From Candidatus Reconcilbacillus cellulovorans (GTDB lineage: Bacteria; Bacillota; Bacilli; Paenibacillales; Reconciliibacillaceae): DNA of 64,000 nucleotides. The position numbers were made by a program, and so were the translations under genes. Location of the stretch: positions 1,035 through 65,034 of the forward strand of contig MOXJ01000012.1 of assembly GCA_002507565.1 (NCBI GenBank), written 5' to 3'. Positions 28,793 through 45,432 of this stretch are shown here, in pieces; within the stretch, counting starts at the first letter, position 1, and every line of letters begins with the position of its first letter. Under the pieces are notes generated by a model. It had not been told where the DNA came from. It saw only the letters and a list, made by a program, of their open reading frames with translations, and did not search any database.

Positions 28793-29869
28793 TCAGCTGT
28801 CGATCTTCCGTCCGAGCGACTCGCGGGACGAAGAGATCGAAAGCGATTGCGACAGCGCCAAACTTTTTTCCAGCCATGTGTTCAGCTGACGGAAGGTGTC
28901 GATGGGAAGCGAAATCGTTTGTTGGCTGTCGCCGATCGACATCTGAATGATCAGCTCGTTTTCACTTTCGGTGCAGATCGCCCGATAATGTACGGTATTG
29001 CCCTTCCACTCTTCCTGCCATTGGCACATATAACTGCTCGTAAATTGCTTCAACTTTTCATTCCTCCTAAACAGGTTGATAATTTTATTTTCCGTCGCTG
29101 GAATCTGCTCGGACGACTCGGTTTTCGACTCGGTTTGCGTGCTTAGGGTCGCTAGCGGCTCAGGCGCGGTTTCCGGTTCGGCCGCAACGGCCGGTTCCCC
29201 AAAGCCTTCTAGCTCGGGAAGAGCCGGCAATTCCAATTCCTCCTGCTCGCGCCGTTCTATCGTTTCGTCCAACTCGACATCGCTTTCGGCAACTGCCGTC
29301 AACGATTCGTCCAACACTCCGGCATACGCCGCGGGATTCCGTTCGTCGCCTACGCCGCCGGGATCGTCGTTCGTCCCGTCCGCGCCGGCAACACCAACAC
29401 TGGCTTCCGCCGAGGACGAATCAGCGGCTGCGGCCGACGCCGGCCGCGGCAGTTCGATCACGTTGTCGAACTTTTTCATTTCCGCCTGCCGGCGTTTTTC
29501 CAGGGCAGGGATTGCAGTCGTGCGAATTACCTCGTTGACGCGGTCGGGCTTGAAAGGTTTCATCAAATAACCGTTGGCGCCCGCTTTCATGGCGTCGGAA
29601 ATTTGCTCTTGCTGGCTCATCGCCGAACAAACGAGCACGACGGCATGCGGGTCGATCATGCGGATTTCGCGGATCGCCTCGATGCCGTCCATTTCGGGCA
29701 TGGTGATGTCCATAATGATGACGTCGGGTTTCAGTTCCCGGAACAGAGTGACGGCCTGCCTCCCGTTGTCCGCCTCGCCGACGACCTCGTGCCCGGCCTG
29801 GACCAGGATGTCCGTCAACATCTTGCGCATAAACTTGGTGTCGTCGACGACCAACATCCGATACGGCAT
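28793..29869 (-). CDS. CheY-like receiver fused to an acidic linker and an unrecognised C-terminal domain of about 110 aa
   Basis: The ORF track extends this gene to 30034. ATG at 29869 lies 9 nt after AAAGGGG. ATG at 29878 forms an ATGA overlap with the upstream stop codon and is an alternative start. The receiver MPYRMLVVDDTKFMRKMLTDIL...IIMDITMPEMDGIEAIREI...CSAMSQQ...YLMKPF closely resembles B. subtilis CheY. I recognise no motif in the remaining 240 aa. Confidence 0.85.
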   Translation of the reverse strand: MPYRMLVVDDTKFMRKMLTDILVQAGHEVVGEADNGRQAVTLFRELKPDVIIMDITMPEMDGIEAIREIRMIDPHAVVLVCSAMSQQEQISDAMKAGANGYLMKPFKPDRVNEVIRTTAIPALEKRRQAEMKKFDNVIELPRPASAAAADSSSAEASVGVAGADGTNDDPGGVGDERNPAAYAGVLDESLTAVAESDVELDETIERREQEELELPALPELEGFGEPAVAAEPETAPEPLATLSTQTESKTESSEQIPATENKIINLFRRNEKLKQFTSSYMCQWQEEWKGNTVHYRAICTESENELIIQMSIGDSQQTISLPIDTFRQLNTWLEKSLALSQSLSISSSRESLGRKIDS

Positions 29870-32717: not shown

Positions 32718-35096
32718 TCAGTACCGCTTCTGATTGTAATCAAGGTCAACGCGAAGCGGCGTCGGCAGCGTGATCGTGACTCCGTCGTCGTCGACGAGGC
32801 GCAGAAAGACGTAATAAGTTCCCCTCGTCTGTCCGGGAGCTGTCGTCACGCGGAATTTCAGCGCGTTCAGCTTATGCCAGTCGCCCGGTTGCAGCCGTGC
32901 CGCATCGGACTGTGTCGAAACGGCGTAATACATTTCCACGACCCGGAATCCCGGCTGATTGAAACGCGGCGTCACCGGATGCGATGTTCGGACTTCGACG
33001 AGCACCGGCTTATCGCTCGGCGAACCGGGCGAGCTCGGATCGAGCGCGACCAGCGAGCCTTGCGGGCCGGGATTGACGACGAACAACCCGGGACCGGCCT
33101 GCGCACTGCCGCCGGTCGACGTCGCCTCGACGCGGATCCGGTGCCATCCCCACCGAGCGGAAGCATCCGGATATACGTCGCTCAGGCGGAACGACGCCGT
33201 ATAGACGTTGCCGTTTTGTTGAATACCTGAAGCGTCGACGACGAGCGACGGCGACGAAGCGTCGTCCAACCAGACGCGTATGCGCGTGACGGGGCTGCTG
33301 TCTTCCGTGGCGACGACCGTGATCCGGCCGTCGTCCGCCGGCTTCGGAATATCGAACTGGAATGCGACCTGCGGCGGCGTGCTGTCAAGCAACACCGTCT
33401 GCCGGTAGGCGTTGCCGCCGATCGGGAACCCCGCGATCGCATTCGTGACGGCGCGTGCCTCAACCGTGACGGAACCGTCGGGCAACGCGACGGGTCGGCC
33501 GGGCATCCAGTTCGTCCAAACGCCACCGTTTATCCGGTACTGATAACCGGCGATATAATTCGCGCGGAAATCTTCGTTCAAATATTGGGTTTCAGGCGGA
33601 AGACGGCCCGCCGAACCGGAAATCGCGGTCACCTTGCCGGGGCCGAGATGCCAACCGGACGAGAGAATCTGTCCGCCCGCACCGTCGGTGAGCTGAAGCG
33701 ACGGCGCCGTCGGCGTCAACGTCCAACGCTTCACGTCGCCGTTATGGTAGCGCACCGCGACGATCGTGTCGTCGGCGATCCCGTCGCCGGGATCGGCGTC
33801 TTCAAACCAGATGTCCCGCACTCCGCCGGTACCGCTGGCGGGAATACGCCACTGCGCGGCTCCGTCGCCGGCGCGGTAACGCGTCACCGTTCCGTCCGCT
33901 TCGCCGACGTACGTATTACCATAGCGGTCGACGGCACGGACATAGACTTGCACCGATGCACCCAGCTTGATGTTGACCTCGCGCACCTGGCCGCAATCGT
34001 CGAGGTAGCGCACGACAGCGTCGGTCAGAGTATAGTTGCCGGAACCTGGCGGCGGCGTGAGCGAGACGGTCACCGTTTTTTCGGAACCCGGCCCGAACGG
34101 ATAGACGAAACTGCCCAGCACGTCGATGACGACGACGCCGTTTTCCAACCGCACCGTCGACGGATTGTCTCCGGACAGAGAAAAACCGTTCGGCAACGGT
34201 TGGCGAACGACCGTCGACGTAATCGTACCGTTCGACTGGATTTCTTCCGTAATCGCTTCAAATACGCTTTCCAATTCGGAGGTATCGCCGGCCTGATACA
34301 TCTTGCCGCCCGTTTTTTGCGCGATCTGTTGCAGCAAGTTCAGGTCGACATCTTGCGAACCCGGTTGGGCAAGCGCGATCGTATAGACGACAATGTTGCG
34401 GTTTTTCATCGAATCGGCGTCGGCGAGTGCTTCTTGACGGGCTTTTGATTCGTCGTACTTAGCTTTCCCGTCCTTATTGTCCGTATAGTAGTTCGCATAG
34501 CCGTCCGTCAGTAAAATCGCCACGCGCATCCGGTTCTGCGGCGAATTTCTAAGCATTTCTTCTGCCAATGTCAAACCATGGTCGATATTCGTATATCCAT
34601 TTGCATAAAAATTGTTAATTTTGTTCCTTATATCACCGTAATTTGTAGTTAACTGACTTTCAACCGAGGCAGTCGTAGAAAACTTGATCAATCCTACCCG
34701 GTCGCCGGCGTTGGCCGCTTGAATTTTGTCCAGGAGCCGTTTGGAGGCCTTCTTCAGCGCTAGAAGACGGGTATCCTCGCCGGTTTGAGGCCTTTGGTTA
34801 TAAACCCCATAATTCATACTGCCCGACACGTCCAGCACCAACGCGATATCCGCCGGCTGGCGCGACGGCCGCGGCGGCGGCGGGCTGCCCGACGGCGTCA
34901 GCGTATACGTGATACGCACCGTTTCATCGGAAGCGACCGACGATTTTTCGACGACGGCCGTTCCGGTCAATTGAAAGTGCGGCGTGCACGACGGATCGGC
35001 CGCTGCCGCACCGGACGGGACGACGCCGATAAGCGTCATCGCCAGTACCAGCACAAACAAGGCGGGAAACGCCCGATAACGCCGTTTTGCCTTCAT
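32718..35096 (-). CDS. Secreted 792-aa von Willebrand factor A (vWA) domain protein, candidate pilus-associated adhesin
   Basis: It has a Sec signal peptide (MKAKRRYRAFPALFVLVLAMTLIGVVPSGAAAA) and a MIDAS motif (DIALVLDVSGSM at aa 83-94) within a vWA fold of about 190 aa. A long beta-rich C-terminal region follows. I saw no LPxTG and no prepilin motif. Confidence 0.8.
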   Translation of the reverse strand: MKAKRRYRAFPALFVLVLAMTLIGVVPSGAAAADPSCTPHFQLTGTAVVEKSSVASDETVRITYTLTPSGSPPPPRPSRQPADIALVLDVSGSMNYGVYNQRPQTGEDTRLLALKKASKRLLDKIQAANAGDRVGLIKFSTTASVESQLTTNYGDIRNKINNFYANGYTNIDHGLTLAEEMLRNSPQNRMRVAILLTDGYANYYTDNKDGKAKYDESKARQEALADADSMKNRNIVVYTIALAQPGSQDVDLNLLQQIAQKTGGKMYQAGDTSELESVFEAITEEIQSNGTITSTVVRQPLPNGFSLSGDNPSTVRLENGVVVIDVLGSFVYPFGPGSEKTVTVSLTPPPGSGNYTLTDAVVRYLDDCGQVREVNIKLGASVQVYVRAVDRYGNTYVGEADGTVTRYRAGDGAAQWRIPASGTGGVRDIWFEDADPGDGIADDTIVAVRYHNGDVKRWTLTPTAPSLQLTDGAGGQILSSGWHLGPGKVTAISGSAGRLPPETQYLNEDFRANYIAGYQYRINGGVWTNWMPGRPVALPDGSVTVEARAVTNAIAGFPIGGNAYRQTVLLDSTPPQVAFQFDIPKPADDGRITVVATEDSSPVTRIRVWLDDASSPSLVVDASGIQQNGNVYTASFRLSDVYPDASARWGWHRIRVEATSTGGSAQAGPGLFVVNPGPQGSLVALDPSSPGSPSDKPVLVEVRTSHPVTPRFNQPGFRVVEMYYAVSTQSDAARLQPGDWHKLNALKFRVTTAPGQTRGTYYVFLRLVDDDGVTITLPTPLRVDLDYNQKRY

Positions 35097-39881: not shown

Positions 39882-40376
39882 TTACGGCGTGTTGCTCGGT
39901 GACGGCGATGTGCCGCCGCCAATCGACACTGTTTTAATTTCTTCTTCGGTTTTGTTATCAAAGTATTTGGTATTTCCACTAGCATCAACAAGCGTAATAC
40001 GATAGGTCAGACTACCATTGCTTGAATTTTGGGTAACAGTTACTTTAGTTGCTGTTGGATGGTAAGTGCTGTTGTTGGTTCCTTGCGGGTCTTTAGGCTC
40101 TTTGTCCAAATATCCCGCACTTACAATCTGTTCCAGAGTAATTGTTTGCACGTTTCCACCTGTTGTATCGGGATTAAACCCTTCCGTCGTCACTTTAAAC
40201 CGTGCACCGTCAATAATCATTTGGGCATTCGCGCGGTGCGCCTCTTTCTTCGTCTTATTGATAATCCCACCGATCGACGGAATGGCGATCGCCGCAATGA
40301 TCGCCAAGATGACGATAACCGCAAGCAATTCGATCAACGTCAAACCGCGCTGATCGCGGTACAGCCGTTTGAGCAT
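39882..40376 (-). CDS. pilA: Major type IV pilin (prepilin-type N-terminal cleavage/methylation domain)
   Basis: ATG at 40376 follows an AAAGGAGGA SD and gives MLKRLYRDQRG|LTLIELLAVIVILAIIAAIAIPS. The protein is 164 aa with no Cys and has a GGGTSPSPSNTP tail. In-frame upstream ATGs at 40454 (strong GGGAGGTGA SD) and at 40493 (ATGA overlap with pilC) are alternative starts. Confidence 0.88.
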   Translation of the reverse strand: MLKRLYRDQRGLTLIELLAVIVILAIIAAIAIPSIGGIINKTKKEAHRANAQMIIDGARFKVTTEGFNPDTTGGNVQTITLEQIVSAGYLDKEPKDPQGTNNSTYHPTATKVTVTQNSSNGSLTYRITLVDASGNTKYFDNKTEEEIKTVSIGGGTSPSPSNTP

Positions 40377-43560: not shown

Positions 43561-44502
43561 TCATGCGCCTGACCTTTGCCGCTCCTCGCCGGACGGTGCC
43601 CTCCTGATGATTTCCGGGCGGGGTGCGTAATAGTCTTTCGAAATGATCACCTGTGCTCCGTTCTGCCGGCGCGCCAGAACCGTCACGTACAGCCCCGGCC
43701 TGCCCGCCTCGCGCACCGTCTGGCCTTCCCGTAGGGCAAAGTCGACAAGCATCAACGTCGAAGGAAGAACTTCTTCCGTCTTCACTTCGATCTCCGGAGC
43801 AGCCCATCCCGGAGACGGCAAGCCCGAGAACAAAACGACGGTCTTGTCGCCTTCCCGACGGACATCAAGCGTGACTGCAAAATCGAACGGATTATAAAAC
43901 GTCAAATTTCGTCGACCCGGCTCGAACATCGCGTCAAACCCCGGCGTAACATAAGTCGGCATTTGCGGATGCAGGTGCCGTTCGCCGGTTATCAGCCCTG
44001 CCCGGACCGCAGCCTCATAGAGAAGCGAGGCGACCTGCGACATTGCGGTTTCGGATGCCGAACCGACTGACTGCAGTTTGTCGCGGTAGACTTCCTGTAG
44101 CGAAAAGGCTTCGCCCGGCTTCAACGACATTCCTTTCAACGCATCCAACCATGCCGTCGCCTGCTGTTCGACAACAGCAAAACTCCTCGCCTCGGCGAGC
44201 GTTCTCGCCGAAGCCTGTCCGGAAGACAGCGCGGGTTCCGTCTGCCGCTGCGAACGGTCGGGCGAGGCCTGAGGCTTCGGCGCGACCGACGCCGATGCCG
44301 GTGAAGGACTTTGCGCCGTCTTCTTCACCGGCGAGACGCCCGACAACCATCCCGGCCGATCGAGCGCACCGAGCGACCAGGCGGAATATAACAAGAAAGC
44401 AGTTACCATACCCGCCAAAGCAACAATGGTAAGAACGATCCCCCCGCGCGGACGCCGGGAGACCGTCGAACGCGCATTCGTTCGCCTTCGCCTTGGTTCC
44501 AC
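43561..44502 (-). CDS. Membrane-anchored VanW-like domain protein, first gene of the pilus operon
   Basis: 313 aa with a GTG start behind GGGGGA. It has an N-terminal transmembrane segment and a Ser/Pro-rich linker. The segment SQVASLLYEAAVRAGLITGERHLHPQMPTYVTPGFDAMFEPGRRNLTFYNPFDFAVTL runs parallel to the VanW/YoaR core (CQVS.TL.NAAL.AGLEIVER..HS..V.Y...G.DATV....DLKF.N). Confidence 0.65.
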   Translation of the reverse strand: MEPRRRRTNARSTVSRRPRGGIVLTIVALAGMVTAFLLYSAWSLGALDRPGWLSGVSPVKKTAQSPSPASASVAPKPQASPDRSQRQTEPALSSGQASARTLAEARSFAVVEQQATAWLDALKGMSLKPGEAFSLQEVYRDKLQSVGSASETAMSQVASLLYEAAVRAGLITGERHLHPQMPTYVTPGFDAMFEPGRRNLTFYNPFDFAVTLDVRREGDKTVVLFSGLPSPGWAAPEIEVKTEEVLPSTLMLVDFALREGQTVREAGRPGLYVTVLARRQNGAQVIISKDYYAPRPEIIRRAPSGEERQRSGA

Positions 44503-44592: not shown

Positions 44593-45432
44593 TCATATGC
44601 CTTTCAGAACCCGCAGAATGAATGATGCCTTTGAGTTGACATTCAATTTGGCATGGATTTTAGAAACGTAGACGCGGACCGTATTTTCACTGATGCCGAG
44701 CATCTGGCCGATGCGTCTGGTGTCGTAGTCCAACAGCCAGTAAAACGCGATCTCCCGTTCTCTGGGACTGAATTCGTACTGGTTCAGAAGCTCCATCAAC
44801 TCGGCATCCGAAAACCATGACTTGTGATTGGAATTTTTTCGTTGAAAATTCGTTTCAATGACGGACGCGATCGACGCAAGGGCGGCGTAGGCCAGCAGCG
44901 CCGAGATCCGCCGCGATGCGAACAGGGCGACCATCGCCACCGGGCGTAGGTCTTCGTTCCACACCGGCACGCAGAGCGTCATCCAATCTTTCATCACGTC
45001 GAGATAATGGTCGTTTCCCAATATGAACGCTGAACGCCGCAATTCGATCGCCGCCGAGACCGCATTCGTACCCGCGCTCGAAATCGACAGCGAGGAACCG
45101 ACGCCGATTTTTAACATCCGCTCCGATTGTTCCAGCGACTCGGAATCGCCGCTGATGTGGAGAACGACGCCGTAAGCATCCGTGATAGTCAAAAGATGGG
45201 GGAAAAAGAAACGCTGAGGGGATGAGGAGATCCATTCTTCGGCAATATCCAGCACCGAGCGGTTTTTCGCCATCAAACGGTCCAGCATTTGCCCATGAAG
45301 CCGGAAGCGGACGGAGGTGAGACTCGGAGCGATGCCCTGCTGGCGTGATTTGTCGTGCAACCACTCGATCTCTTTCGGAGAGAGGCCGACGACTTTCAAA
45401 AACTCCCTGTCTTTTGTTTTGCCCGAAAACAC
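44593..45432 (-). CDS. LuxR/GerE-family transcriptional regulator with an N-terminal sensory (GAF-like?) domain
   Basis: 279 aa with a GTG start behind an AAGGGAGG SD. The C-terminal HTH is SPREREIAFYWLLDYDTRRIGQMLGISENTVRVYVSKIHAKLNV. The N-terminal 200 aa include a GTNAVSAAIE-type segment, and I cannot assign that domain firmly. Confidence 0.82.
   Translation of the reverse strand: MFSGKTKDREFLKVVGLSPKEIEWLHDKSRQQGIAPSLTSVRFRLHGQMLDRLMAKNRSVLDIAEEWISSSPQRFFFPHLLTITDAYGVVLHISGDSESLEQSERMLKIGVGSSLSISSAGTNAVSAAIELRRSAFILGNDHYLDVMKDWMTLCVPVWNEDLRPVAMVALFASRRISALLAYAALASIASVIETNFQRKNSNHKSWFSDAELMELLNQYEFSPREREIAFYWLLDYDTRRIGQMLGISENTVRVYVSKIHAKLNVNSKASFILRVLKGI

Follow-up and report, generated by a model that had tools for sequence, protein, structure and literature searches.

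The minus strand of the 64,000-nucleotide stretch of Candidatus Reconcilbacillus cellulovorans DNA analysed here (the window) carries a type IVa pilus operon, one gene of which encodes a Sec-type protein of 792 amino acids with a von Willebrand factor A (vWA) domain. This vWA gene is a fixed and conserved member of the type IVa pilus operon of the Paenibacillaceae. By analogy with diderm systems, the vWA protein may be a non-pilin, PilY1-like tip adhesin of a Gram-positive type IVa pilus, a reading to which a probability of about 0.5 is assigned. It was proposed because the conserved C-terminal peptide of the protein resembles the strand with which PilC/PilY1 proteins dock on PilK. Common descent is not implied; the vWA protein is no PilY1 homologue, and the module that serves as its C-terminal carrier bears no relation to the propeller of PilY1.

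The gene was taken from the list of open reading frames and its translation; it starts with ATG and has its own ribosome-binding site. Residues 83-280 of the product match the Pfam family PF00092 (VWA) with E = 5e-21, scoring 76.1 bits where the cut-off is 23.8; the family PF13519 matches as well (72.6 bits, cut-off 27). The MIDAS (metal ion-dependent adhesion site) is complete, consisting of DVSGS at residues 89-93, T169 and D198, and the residues D89, S91, S93, T169 and D198 are invariant in a family alignment of 31 sequences. The N-terminus, which reads MKAKRRYR, AFPALFVLVLAMTLIGVVP and SGAAAADP, shows to the eye the n/h/c layout of a leader for Sec and signal peptidase I, and an AlphaFold2 (AF2) model places a signal helix at residues 10-22, followed by a low-confidence linker at residues 23-33. 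Other routes of export and sorting were rejected. Cys37 lies outside any lipobox, around 15 residues beyond the hydrophobic core, which speaks against a lipoprotein, and the RR pair of MKAKRRYRAF is not kept in homologues, which speaks against twin-arginine export. Prepilin and sortase sorting were dismissed because the respective signals are missing: the vWA protein lacks an N-terminal class III prepilin motif (G-F/L-T-L-x-E), the lone GLTLAE being internal at residue 174, and gives no match to Pfam N_methyl; it also lacks an LPxTG motif with a membrane anchor, IPASG at residue 418 is internal, and the C-terminus (...LRVDLDYNQKRY, ...VDLDYNQKRY) is hydrophilic. The first-pass annotation, made from the letters of the DNA, had described the product as a Sec-type non-pilin with an intact MIDAS and neither a prepilin nor an LPxTG motif, and Pfam, the alignment and the reading of the sequence bear this out.

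The operon comprises genes for a VanW-like protein, pilB, pilC, the major pilin, pilM, pilN, pilO, pilT, a protein with S-layer homology (SLH) repeats, the vWA protein, pilins of 155 and 171 amino acids, a pilin-like protein of 602 amino acids, a CheY-type regulator and a prepilin peptidase. The genes are closely packed, and the presence of PilB, PilT, PilC and PilMNO identifies the type as IVa. The order pilB-pilC-pilin-pilMNO-pilT-SLH-vWA-pilin-pilin-large pilin-response regulator-pilD is kept whole in the loci L001, L082 and L083, and the shorter contigs L084, L089 and L090 show the same order in the part that they cover, from the SLH gene onward. The proposed succession of a vWA gene and I-like, J-like and K/X-like minor pilin genes beside type IV pilus genes is thus confirmed, and it is kept in six Paenibacillaceae loci. 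The individual pilin labels fared unevenly. The 602-amino-acid protein is read as K-like because it lacks the glutamate at position 5 (Glu5), the absence of which is a hallmark of the apical PilK/GspK subunit (PMC13533445). The 155-amino-acid pilin has a weak similarity to PilV/GspI (NCBIfam TIGR02523, E = 1.8e-6, below the cut-off), and the 171-amino-acid pilin can be called J-like by position only.

Full-length relatives of the vWA protein are few and belong to the Paenibacillaceae (Paenibacillus cremeus, Paenibacillus sp. Soil750, P. dokdonensis and metagenomes), and full-length homologues were found only in pilus operons of the Paenibacillaceae type. The sequence of the window itself recurs in bioreactor and compost metagenomes. 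A contig scan with the generic vWA patterns DVSGSM and DRVGLIKF returned only unrelated vWA genes. In a profile search, many further proteins were found to share just the N-terminal 370 residues or so, which comprise the signal peptide, β-strands, the vWA domain and β-strands; this N-module is shared with vWA proteins of Bacillus and Clostridium, where positions 2-377 of the family hidden Markov model (HMM) are covered in P0006, P0052 and P0178. All four N-module loci that were looked up are type IV pilus loci in which two pilins have Glu5 and a single large pilin lacks it, and a fifth, weaker vWA match (P0008) lay outside any pilus locus. In Bacillus sp. KH172YL63 (L085, 10001-12877), the vWA gene is convergent with three pilin genes. 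It is the last gene of the operon in Clostridium beijerinckii (L087, 10001-12847), CFN-8 (L088, 10001-12892) and Tepidibacter aestuarii (L091, 10001-14071), where the operon ends with a pilin, a large pilin without Glu5, a pilin and the Sec-type vWA protein. Each locus examined, including L001, L082, L085, L087 and L088, encodes exactly one large pilin-like protein without Glu5, and its counterpart in L091 has a weak PilX_N match. Altogether, the vWA gene adjoins I/J/K-type minor pilin genes in the window and in 10 further loci. The comparison with the fimU-pilVWXY1 module drawn in the first-pass annotation is loose, because the vWA gene precedes the minor pilin genes here and follows them in the Clostridium-type loci; in Pseudomonas, the pilY1 gene comes directly after the minor pilins, as does the vWA gene in L087, L088 and L091.

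Beyond the vWA domain, the extreme C-terminus is the most revealing feature of the protein. Nearly all full-length family matches end in V-x-I-D-Y-N-Q-K-R-Y, including variants of 429 to 1233 amino acids with different middle parts; the endings FDTEQNNN and FNYK(Y/F)(D/N)LY also occur. Columns -4 and -1 in the logo of this tail were predetermined by the search pattern with which the sequences had been gathered; the other columns were free. The C-terminal peptide is preceded by an equally persistent region: the last 220 residues or so (HMM positions of about 565 to 789) are always C-terminal, whatever the length of the protein. In PilC/PilY1, the last ten or so residues complete the β-sheet of PilK in trans and are required for piliation and for retention at the tip, and GspK of the type II secretion system (T2SS) and CpaL of the Tad system provide an equivalent strand in cis (PMC13533445). 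It was suggested earlier that the vWA protein would have to join the fibre non-covalently; such an attachment is plausible, and the conserved C-terminal peptide is the candidate for it, through strand addition of the PilC/PilY1 kind (PMC13533445). The last block of the monomer model has a mean predicted local distance difference test (pLDDT) score of 54, as expected for a peptide that folds upon its partner. The vWA proteins of the other clades have tails of their own. Those of the Clostridium type (about 100 proteins of 542-1656 amino acids, with varied domains) mostly end in [LM]-P-[DE]-[LV]-F, and those of the Bacillus type in ...G-[RK]-W.

In the proposed mechanism, the vWA protein would be exported by Sec, and its last 6 to 10 or so residues would join the β-sheet of the K-like pilin of 602 amino acids as a further strand, supplied in trans. 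The two small minor pilins would then join this pair to give an initiation complex that primes the fibre, and the vWA protein would stay at the pilus tip. There, the MIDAS face would bind a ligand through a divalent cation, and retraction by PilT would pull on that bond. By analogy, the mechanism would be the same as that of diderm PilC/PilY1, carried out by an unrelated carrier module. Both are large non-pilins of the Sec/signal peptidase I type encoded beside I/J/K minor pilins (Neisseria PilC; Pseudomonas, Acinetobacter and Myxococcus PilY1), and both combine a variable effector part, which in P. aeruginosa PilY1 is a vWA domain, with a constant C-terminal carrier and a conserved terminal peptide. 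However, the propeller signature is missing here and the carrier consists of β-rich modules of around 100 amino acids; the gene precedes the minor pilins, whereas the pilY1 gene follows pilX, and the host has one membrane and no secretin. TadG/CpaL of the Tad (type IVc) system and MshQ of the MSHA system are likewise large tip-associated proteins that give a terminal β-strand to the initiation complex, and CpaL/TadG often have a vWA-like middle part. CpaL, unlike the vWA protein, has a pilin-like N-terminal domain of its own and provides the strand in cis. MshQ is only a predicted analogue, and neither MshQ nor CpaL/TadG is homologous to the C-terminal part of the vWA protein, so far as compared.

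The AF2 model was built on the alignment of 31 sequences and reached a mean pLDDT of 88 and a predicted template modelling score of 0.57; a single-sequence model (pLDDT 38) was unusable. After the signal helix, the model shows β-strands at residues 41-70, the α/β vWA domain to about residue 288, β-strands to about residue 380 and approximately 30 further strands up to residue 786, several of which are 11-13 residues long. The best Foldseek matches are tip adhesins headed by a vWA domain, namely PitA (7w6b, 1.4e-19), SpaC (6m48, 2e-18) and Mfa5 (6to1, 1.9e-15). The alignments with 7w6b and 6m48 extend over more than 800 columns, yet their TM-scores are only about 0.22-0.25. The model thus predicts a vWA head on a β-sandwich stalk, as in the tip adhesins of sortase pili. 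SpaC of Lactobacillus rhamnosus GG, PitA of Streptococcus oralis and adhesins of the RrgA type share the vWA head, the flanking β-strands and the β-rich stalk; however, they are linked covalently by sortase through LPXTG, whereas the protein described here has neither LPXTG nor an anchor and is encoded in the operon of a type IV machine. Foldseek also matches the type IV pilin PilB of S. sanguinis (7ba2/7b7p, 5e-13), and in the profile search of the PDB PilB (7b7p, 2.7e-15) came second to 4rck (6e-22). PilB belongs to a Gram-positive type IVa pilus and has a vWA domain with a MIDAS, but is itself a polymerised pilin with a class III leader and a grafted vWA domain; the protein of the window, in contrast, starts with an ordinary signal peptide and contains no pilin module.

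According to the model, residues 37-82 probably pair with residues 289-380 to form a β-sandwich that carries the vWA domain. The protein has only two cysteines, C37 (34986-34988) and C368 (33993-33995), which are invariant in an alignment of five sequences and are the consensus residues in the 31-sequence alignment. They flank the vWA domain and lie within the β-strands on either side of it. A C37-C368 disulfide that clamps these strands is plausible. Disulfides matter for force sensing by PilY1.

A PilY1-type β-propeller had also been considered for the C-terminal 500 residues. None was found in comparisons of the family, of repeats, of natural variants and of the whole protein by Foldseek. 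When the C-termini of five family members were compared with Pfam and NCBIfam, the PilC/PilY1 domain (IPR008707) did not come up even at E <= 10, no internal repeats were seen in the last 500 residues, and no PilY1 structure was among the best 50 Foldseek matches listed for the whole protein. The same region has no PDB sequence relative, and apart from a weak hit to a barrel of the OmpL47 type in four of the five members (best E = 0.0012), none of the families of Pfam and NCBIfam matches it; stray WD40/BamB-like scores at residues 389-470 or so had E = 0.025-0.8. The β-rich modules of this half are separable in natural variants. P0028 (615 amino acids) has HMM positions 14-377 fused straight to 567-789, and in other variants, modules are inserted or duplicated at about 370-380 and 560-600. 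A PilY1-type propeller was rejected on the grounds of the missing family match, the stray nature of the WD40/BamB-like scores, the absence of repeats and the separable modules, and for the same reasons a closed, seven-bladed, PilY1-like propeller in this region is very unlikely.

Several points weigh against a tip adhesin. The likeness to PilY1 rests on the gene context and the terminal peptide, the carrier being of another kind, and the predicted contact with the minor pilins is drawn by analogy. Only about six residues (YNQKRY) extend past the last modelled strand, compared with about ten in PilC/PilY1, and the conserved peptide is in part the last strand of the final domain; moreover, two of the tail-logo columns, -4 and -1, were set by the pattern that gathered the sequences. 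The Foldseek ranking is dominated by the vWA domain, and the alignment underlying the AF2 model is only 31 sequences deep. A search for RNA sequencing runs containing the vWA gene found none. Finally, a Sec-type vWA protein of Clostridium perfringens, BsaC, is the cargo of pilus-dependent secretion and not a tip subunit (PMC11580942).

BsaC (CPE0517) leads to the alternative that survives best, although it is still unlikely: the Sec-exported vWA protein could be pushed through the wall and the S-layer by the pilus acting as a piston and then be released or held on the wall, off the fibre. BsaC is, like the protein of the window, a Sec-type vWA protein of a Firmicute, and what becomes of it at the surface or outside the cell depends on genes of the type IV pilus; its secretion requires PilA3, PilB2, PilC1, PilD and PilMNO, and a folded protein of 792 amino acids is far above the size stated to cross peptidoglycan unaided (PMC11580942). 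The operon context would suit a dedicated cargo as well as a subunit. However, BsaC is encoded in the biofilm-matrix operon sipW-bsaA-bsaB-bsaC, away from minor pilin genes, and is described as a secreted cargo whose secretion is independent of the minor pilins cpe2279/cpe2280, whereas the constant neighbours of the vWA gene are I/J/K-type pilins across four further genera. A released protein also gives no reason for a C-terminal peptide that is invariant across different middle parts, and the payloads of the T2SS use no strand addition, as they have to be released (PMC13533445).

It is distinctly improbable that the vWA protein instead binds to the SLH protein by the latter's N-terminal domain and, in the resulting wall-anchored complex, serves for adhesion or forms a collar or guide for the pilus at the wall and S-layer. 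The SLH gene lies directly upstream, between pilT and the vWA gene, and the pair is found in all six Paenibacillaceae loci (L001, L082, L083, L084, L089, L090); in the window, the SLH stop codon (35134-35132) leaves a gap of 35 nucleotides, in which no convincing terminator was seen. Paenibacillus adhesins of the VMSP type unite vWA and SLH in one chain, and SLH repeats hold proteins to the secondary polymers of the wall without a covalent link (PMC8610288). However, the pilus loci of Bacillus, Clostridium and Tepidibacter that encode N-module vWA proteins (L085, L087, L088, L091) contain no SLH gene. This makes the SLH protein look like an accessory specific to one lineage, and the constant partner of the vWA gene is the minor pilin set. 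The SLH protein could link the cell wall with the pilus machine or with the adhesin.

Only a slight chance is given to a role in assembly alone, in which the vWA protein would prime or stabilise the minor-pilin initiation complex without being adhesive and its MIDAS would bind a component of the machine. Efficient initiation requires PilC/PilY1, the C-terminal part of which suffices for assembly (PMC13533445); the part that is always kept in the vWA family is likewise the C-terminal carrier with the tail. Yet the MIDAS is invariant while the residues flanking it are the most variable between strains, a pattern that typifies surfaces exposed to changing ligands from outside, to phages or to antagonists rather than to a conserved partner within, and the best fold matches are adhesins.

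The strain variability coincides with a dip in G+C content. The first-pass annotation had counted 100 G+C in the 240 nucleotides at 34441-34680, which is exact (0.417), and had taken the dip as a sign that the vWA domain was acquired as a module. In a window analysis of the G+C content, the stretch ranks among the lowest 0.13% of 240-nucleotide windows (mean 0.597, standard deviation 0.045), and only the major pilin gene is lower in G+C. Part of the dip is due to amino acid composition, as K, N, Y and I are frequent here; amino acid composition as its sole cause was rejected on the basis of a codon test conditioned on the amino acids and on the codon usage of 15 neighbouring genes, together with the absence of a dip in high-G+C homologues. 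Residues 91-180 have 43 codons ending in G or C, compared with 64.1 expected (z = -5.2), and the G+C content at third codon positions (GC3) falls there from about 0.72 to 0.43-0.57 (gene mean 0.70). The best low-GC segment, residues 139-184, has z = -6.65, the minimum in 200 simulations being -4.91. At the same place, no dip is seen in homologues whose genomes have G+C contents of 59, 60 and 70%. The AT-rich composition is thus real but lineage-specific.

Among variants at least 90% identical, 31 of the 78 strain-variable residues fall within residues 95-240 (p = 9e-6). The close strain locus L090 is 91% identical over 11.7 kb; at residues 81-180, the identity drops to 77.5-83%, synonymous changes are raised about two- to threefold, and GC3 is low there too. 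The vWA-core patch and the linker of the response regulator are the two most divergent stretches of the locus shared with L090. Judged from these sequences, the patch is most likely a mosaic or diversifying segment inside an existing vWA gene, produced by allelic exchange, diversifying selection or both, as also occurs in exposed parts of pili. Exchange would have taken place among alleles rather than by the grafting of a domain, because the vWA domain is ancestral to the family, the identity is uniform and the L090 allele has diverged. Recent foreign acquisition of the vWA core is therefore the least probable of the explanations: the G+C content and GC3 of residues 91-184 are far below those of the remaining gene and its neighbours, but neither the place of the vWA domain nor its MIDAS residues differ among all 31 aligned relatives, residues 101-240 are as similar to four homologues (39-45% identity) as the remainder of the protein is, L090 shares the low-GC3 patch as a diverged allele, and no donor was found in homologue searches. 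The concentration of variation in the vWA core fits an exposed, ligand-contacting part of the protein, and the variable residues, which flank the MIDAS motifs in the sequence, would form the ligand-binding face or the loops at the MIDAS site.

The major pilin gene is compositionally the most atypical in the window (G+C 0.47, GC3 0.49 compared with about 0.72 in its neighbours, z = -7.0 when its amino acids are allowed for). That it and the vWA patch are atypical alike suggests the exchange or diversification of exposed parts of the pilus. The hypervariable patch suggests that the vWA protein is under pressure from ligands or phages, and the same pressure would explain the composition of the major pilin gene.

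The features of the vWA gene and of its neighbours are collected in the table.

Table. Positions of the vWA gene, its parts and neighbouring genes in the window
Feature	Position	Strand	Residues	Remarks
vWA gene	32718..35096	-	1-792	Sec-type vWA non-pilin; stop codon 32718-32720
Shine-Dalgarno sequence AGGGGTG	35110-35104	-		7 nucleotides 5' of the vWA ATG; read from the sequence
Signal peptide region	34998..35096	-	1-33	basic n-region, 19-residue hydrophobic core, Ala-rich c-region
N-terminal β-strands	34851..34988	-	37-82	precede the vWA domain; AF2 strands 41-49, 53-55 and 60-70, pLDDT > 90
vWA domain	34233..34850	-	83-288	D89, S91 and S93 at 34818-34832; Pfam, PDB profile and Foldseek
AT-rich, strain-hypervariable patch	34545..34826	-	91-184	wider low-G+C zone 34374-34838 contains 34441-34680
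Post-vWA β-rich region	33957..34232	-	289-380	holds Cys368; AF2 strands
Middle β-rich modules	33399..33956	-	381-566	dispensable in natural variants
C-terminal carrier modules	32751..33398	-	567-782	kept in all family members; pLDDT mostly > 85
Extreme C-terminal peptide VDLDYNQKRY	32721..32750	-	783-792	proposed docking strand for the K-like pilin
Minor pilin, 155 amino acids	32210..32677	-		...ESG/LTLVE (slash, cleavage site), Glu5 present; Pfam N_methyl; I/V-like
Minor pilin, 171 amino acids	31687..32202	-		...ERG/LTLLE, Glu5 present; Pfam N_methyl E = 4.4e-6; J-like by position only
Large pilin-like protein, 602 amino acids	29875..31683	-		...SESG/AALAVALF, no Glu5; K/PilX-like, presumed apical subunit
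SLH protein, 408 amino acids	35132..36358	-		N-terminal anchor, uncharacterised domain of ~190 amino acids, 3 SLH repeats; Pfam SLH E = 6e-31
CheY-type response regulator	28793-29866	-		linker at 29043-29551
Prepilin peptidase, 224 amino acids	28094-28768	-		Peptidase_A24 domain only
Major pilin gene	39882-40376	-
VanW-domain gene	43561-44502	-		directly upstream of pilB
LuxR/GerE-type helix-turn-helix gene	44593-45432	-		upstream of the VanW gene

Some of the neighbouring genes have peculiarities of their own. The CheY-type response regulator encoded inside the operon has a long, acidic, low-complexity linker and an uncharacterised C-terminal domain; the linker is the most strain-divergent stretch (77-80% against L090, compared with a mean of 91%), and the stretch 28845-29151 near it is also poor in G+C. 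The peptidases of homologous loci have 257-260 amino acids and an A24_N_bact domain, and that of the close strain L090 is short too (227 amino acids); the peptidase of the window may lack the N-terminal, methyltransferase-associated part, or may start farther upstream. The VanW-domain gene is kept in the Paenibacillus and Bacillus loci L001, L082, L083 and L085, and the LuxR/GerE-type gene, which may regulate the operon, is also present in L082. The operon genes examined between 25 and 45 kb yielded no sortase gene. A cyclic di-GMP riboswitch controls pilA1 in C. difficile; across positions 1-64000 of the window, no Rfam family, this riboswitch included, scored above threshold.

The non-pilin adhesins at the tips of type IV pili (PilC/PilY1) have a central part in adhesion, in the sensing of surfaces and in the initiation of pili. 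Reviews restrict such PilC/PilY1 tip effectors to diderms (PMC10191384), and a study from 2026 proposes that these adhesins arose after the Gram-positive Com pili had diverged (PMC13533445). In the literature, of which subscription journals were covered incompletely, no report of a vWA non-pilin encoded in a type IVa pilus operon of Firmicutes was found. There are Paenibacillus species in which type IV pili matter for virulence (bioRxiv 10.1101/2022.01.24.477451). More tentatively than for the single protein, it is proposed that many Firmicutes (Paenibacillaceae, Bacillus, Clostridium, Tepidibacter) have on their type IVa pili an unrecognised class of non-pilin tip adhesins, with a shared Sec-exported vWA module, a variable stalk and a clade-specific tail (...DYNQKRY, ...LPD[LV]F, ...G[RK]W) that would dock on the K-like pilin. 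The value of the finding lies more in this pattern across the Firmicutes and in the testable tail than in the single gene, and the vWA protein and the K-like pilin would serve as a natural test of the generality of the strand-addition rule. If the tip-adhesin reading is true, monoderm type IVa pili would have a tip adhesin with the same working principle on a different scaffold. If the wider class exists, strand addition in trans by large adhesins would extend beyond diderm type IVa and MSHA pili. Strand addition would then be either older than the split or convergent on a different carrier fold.

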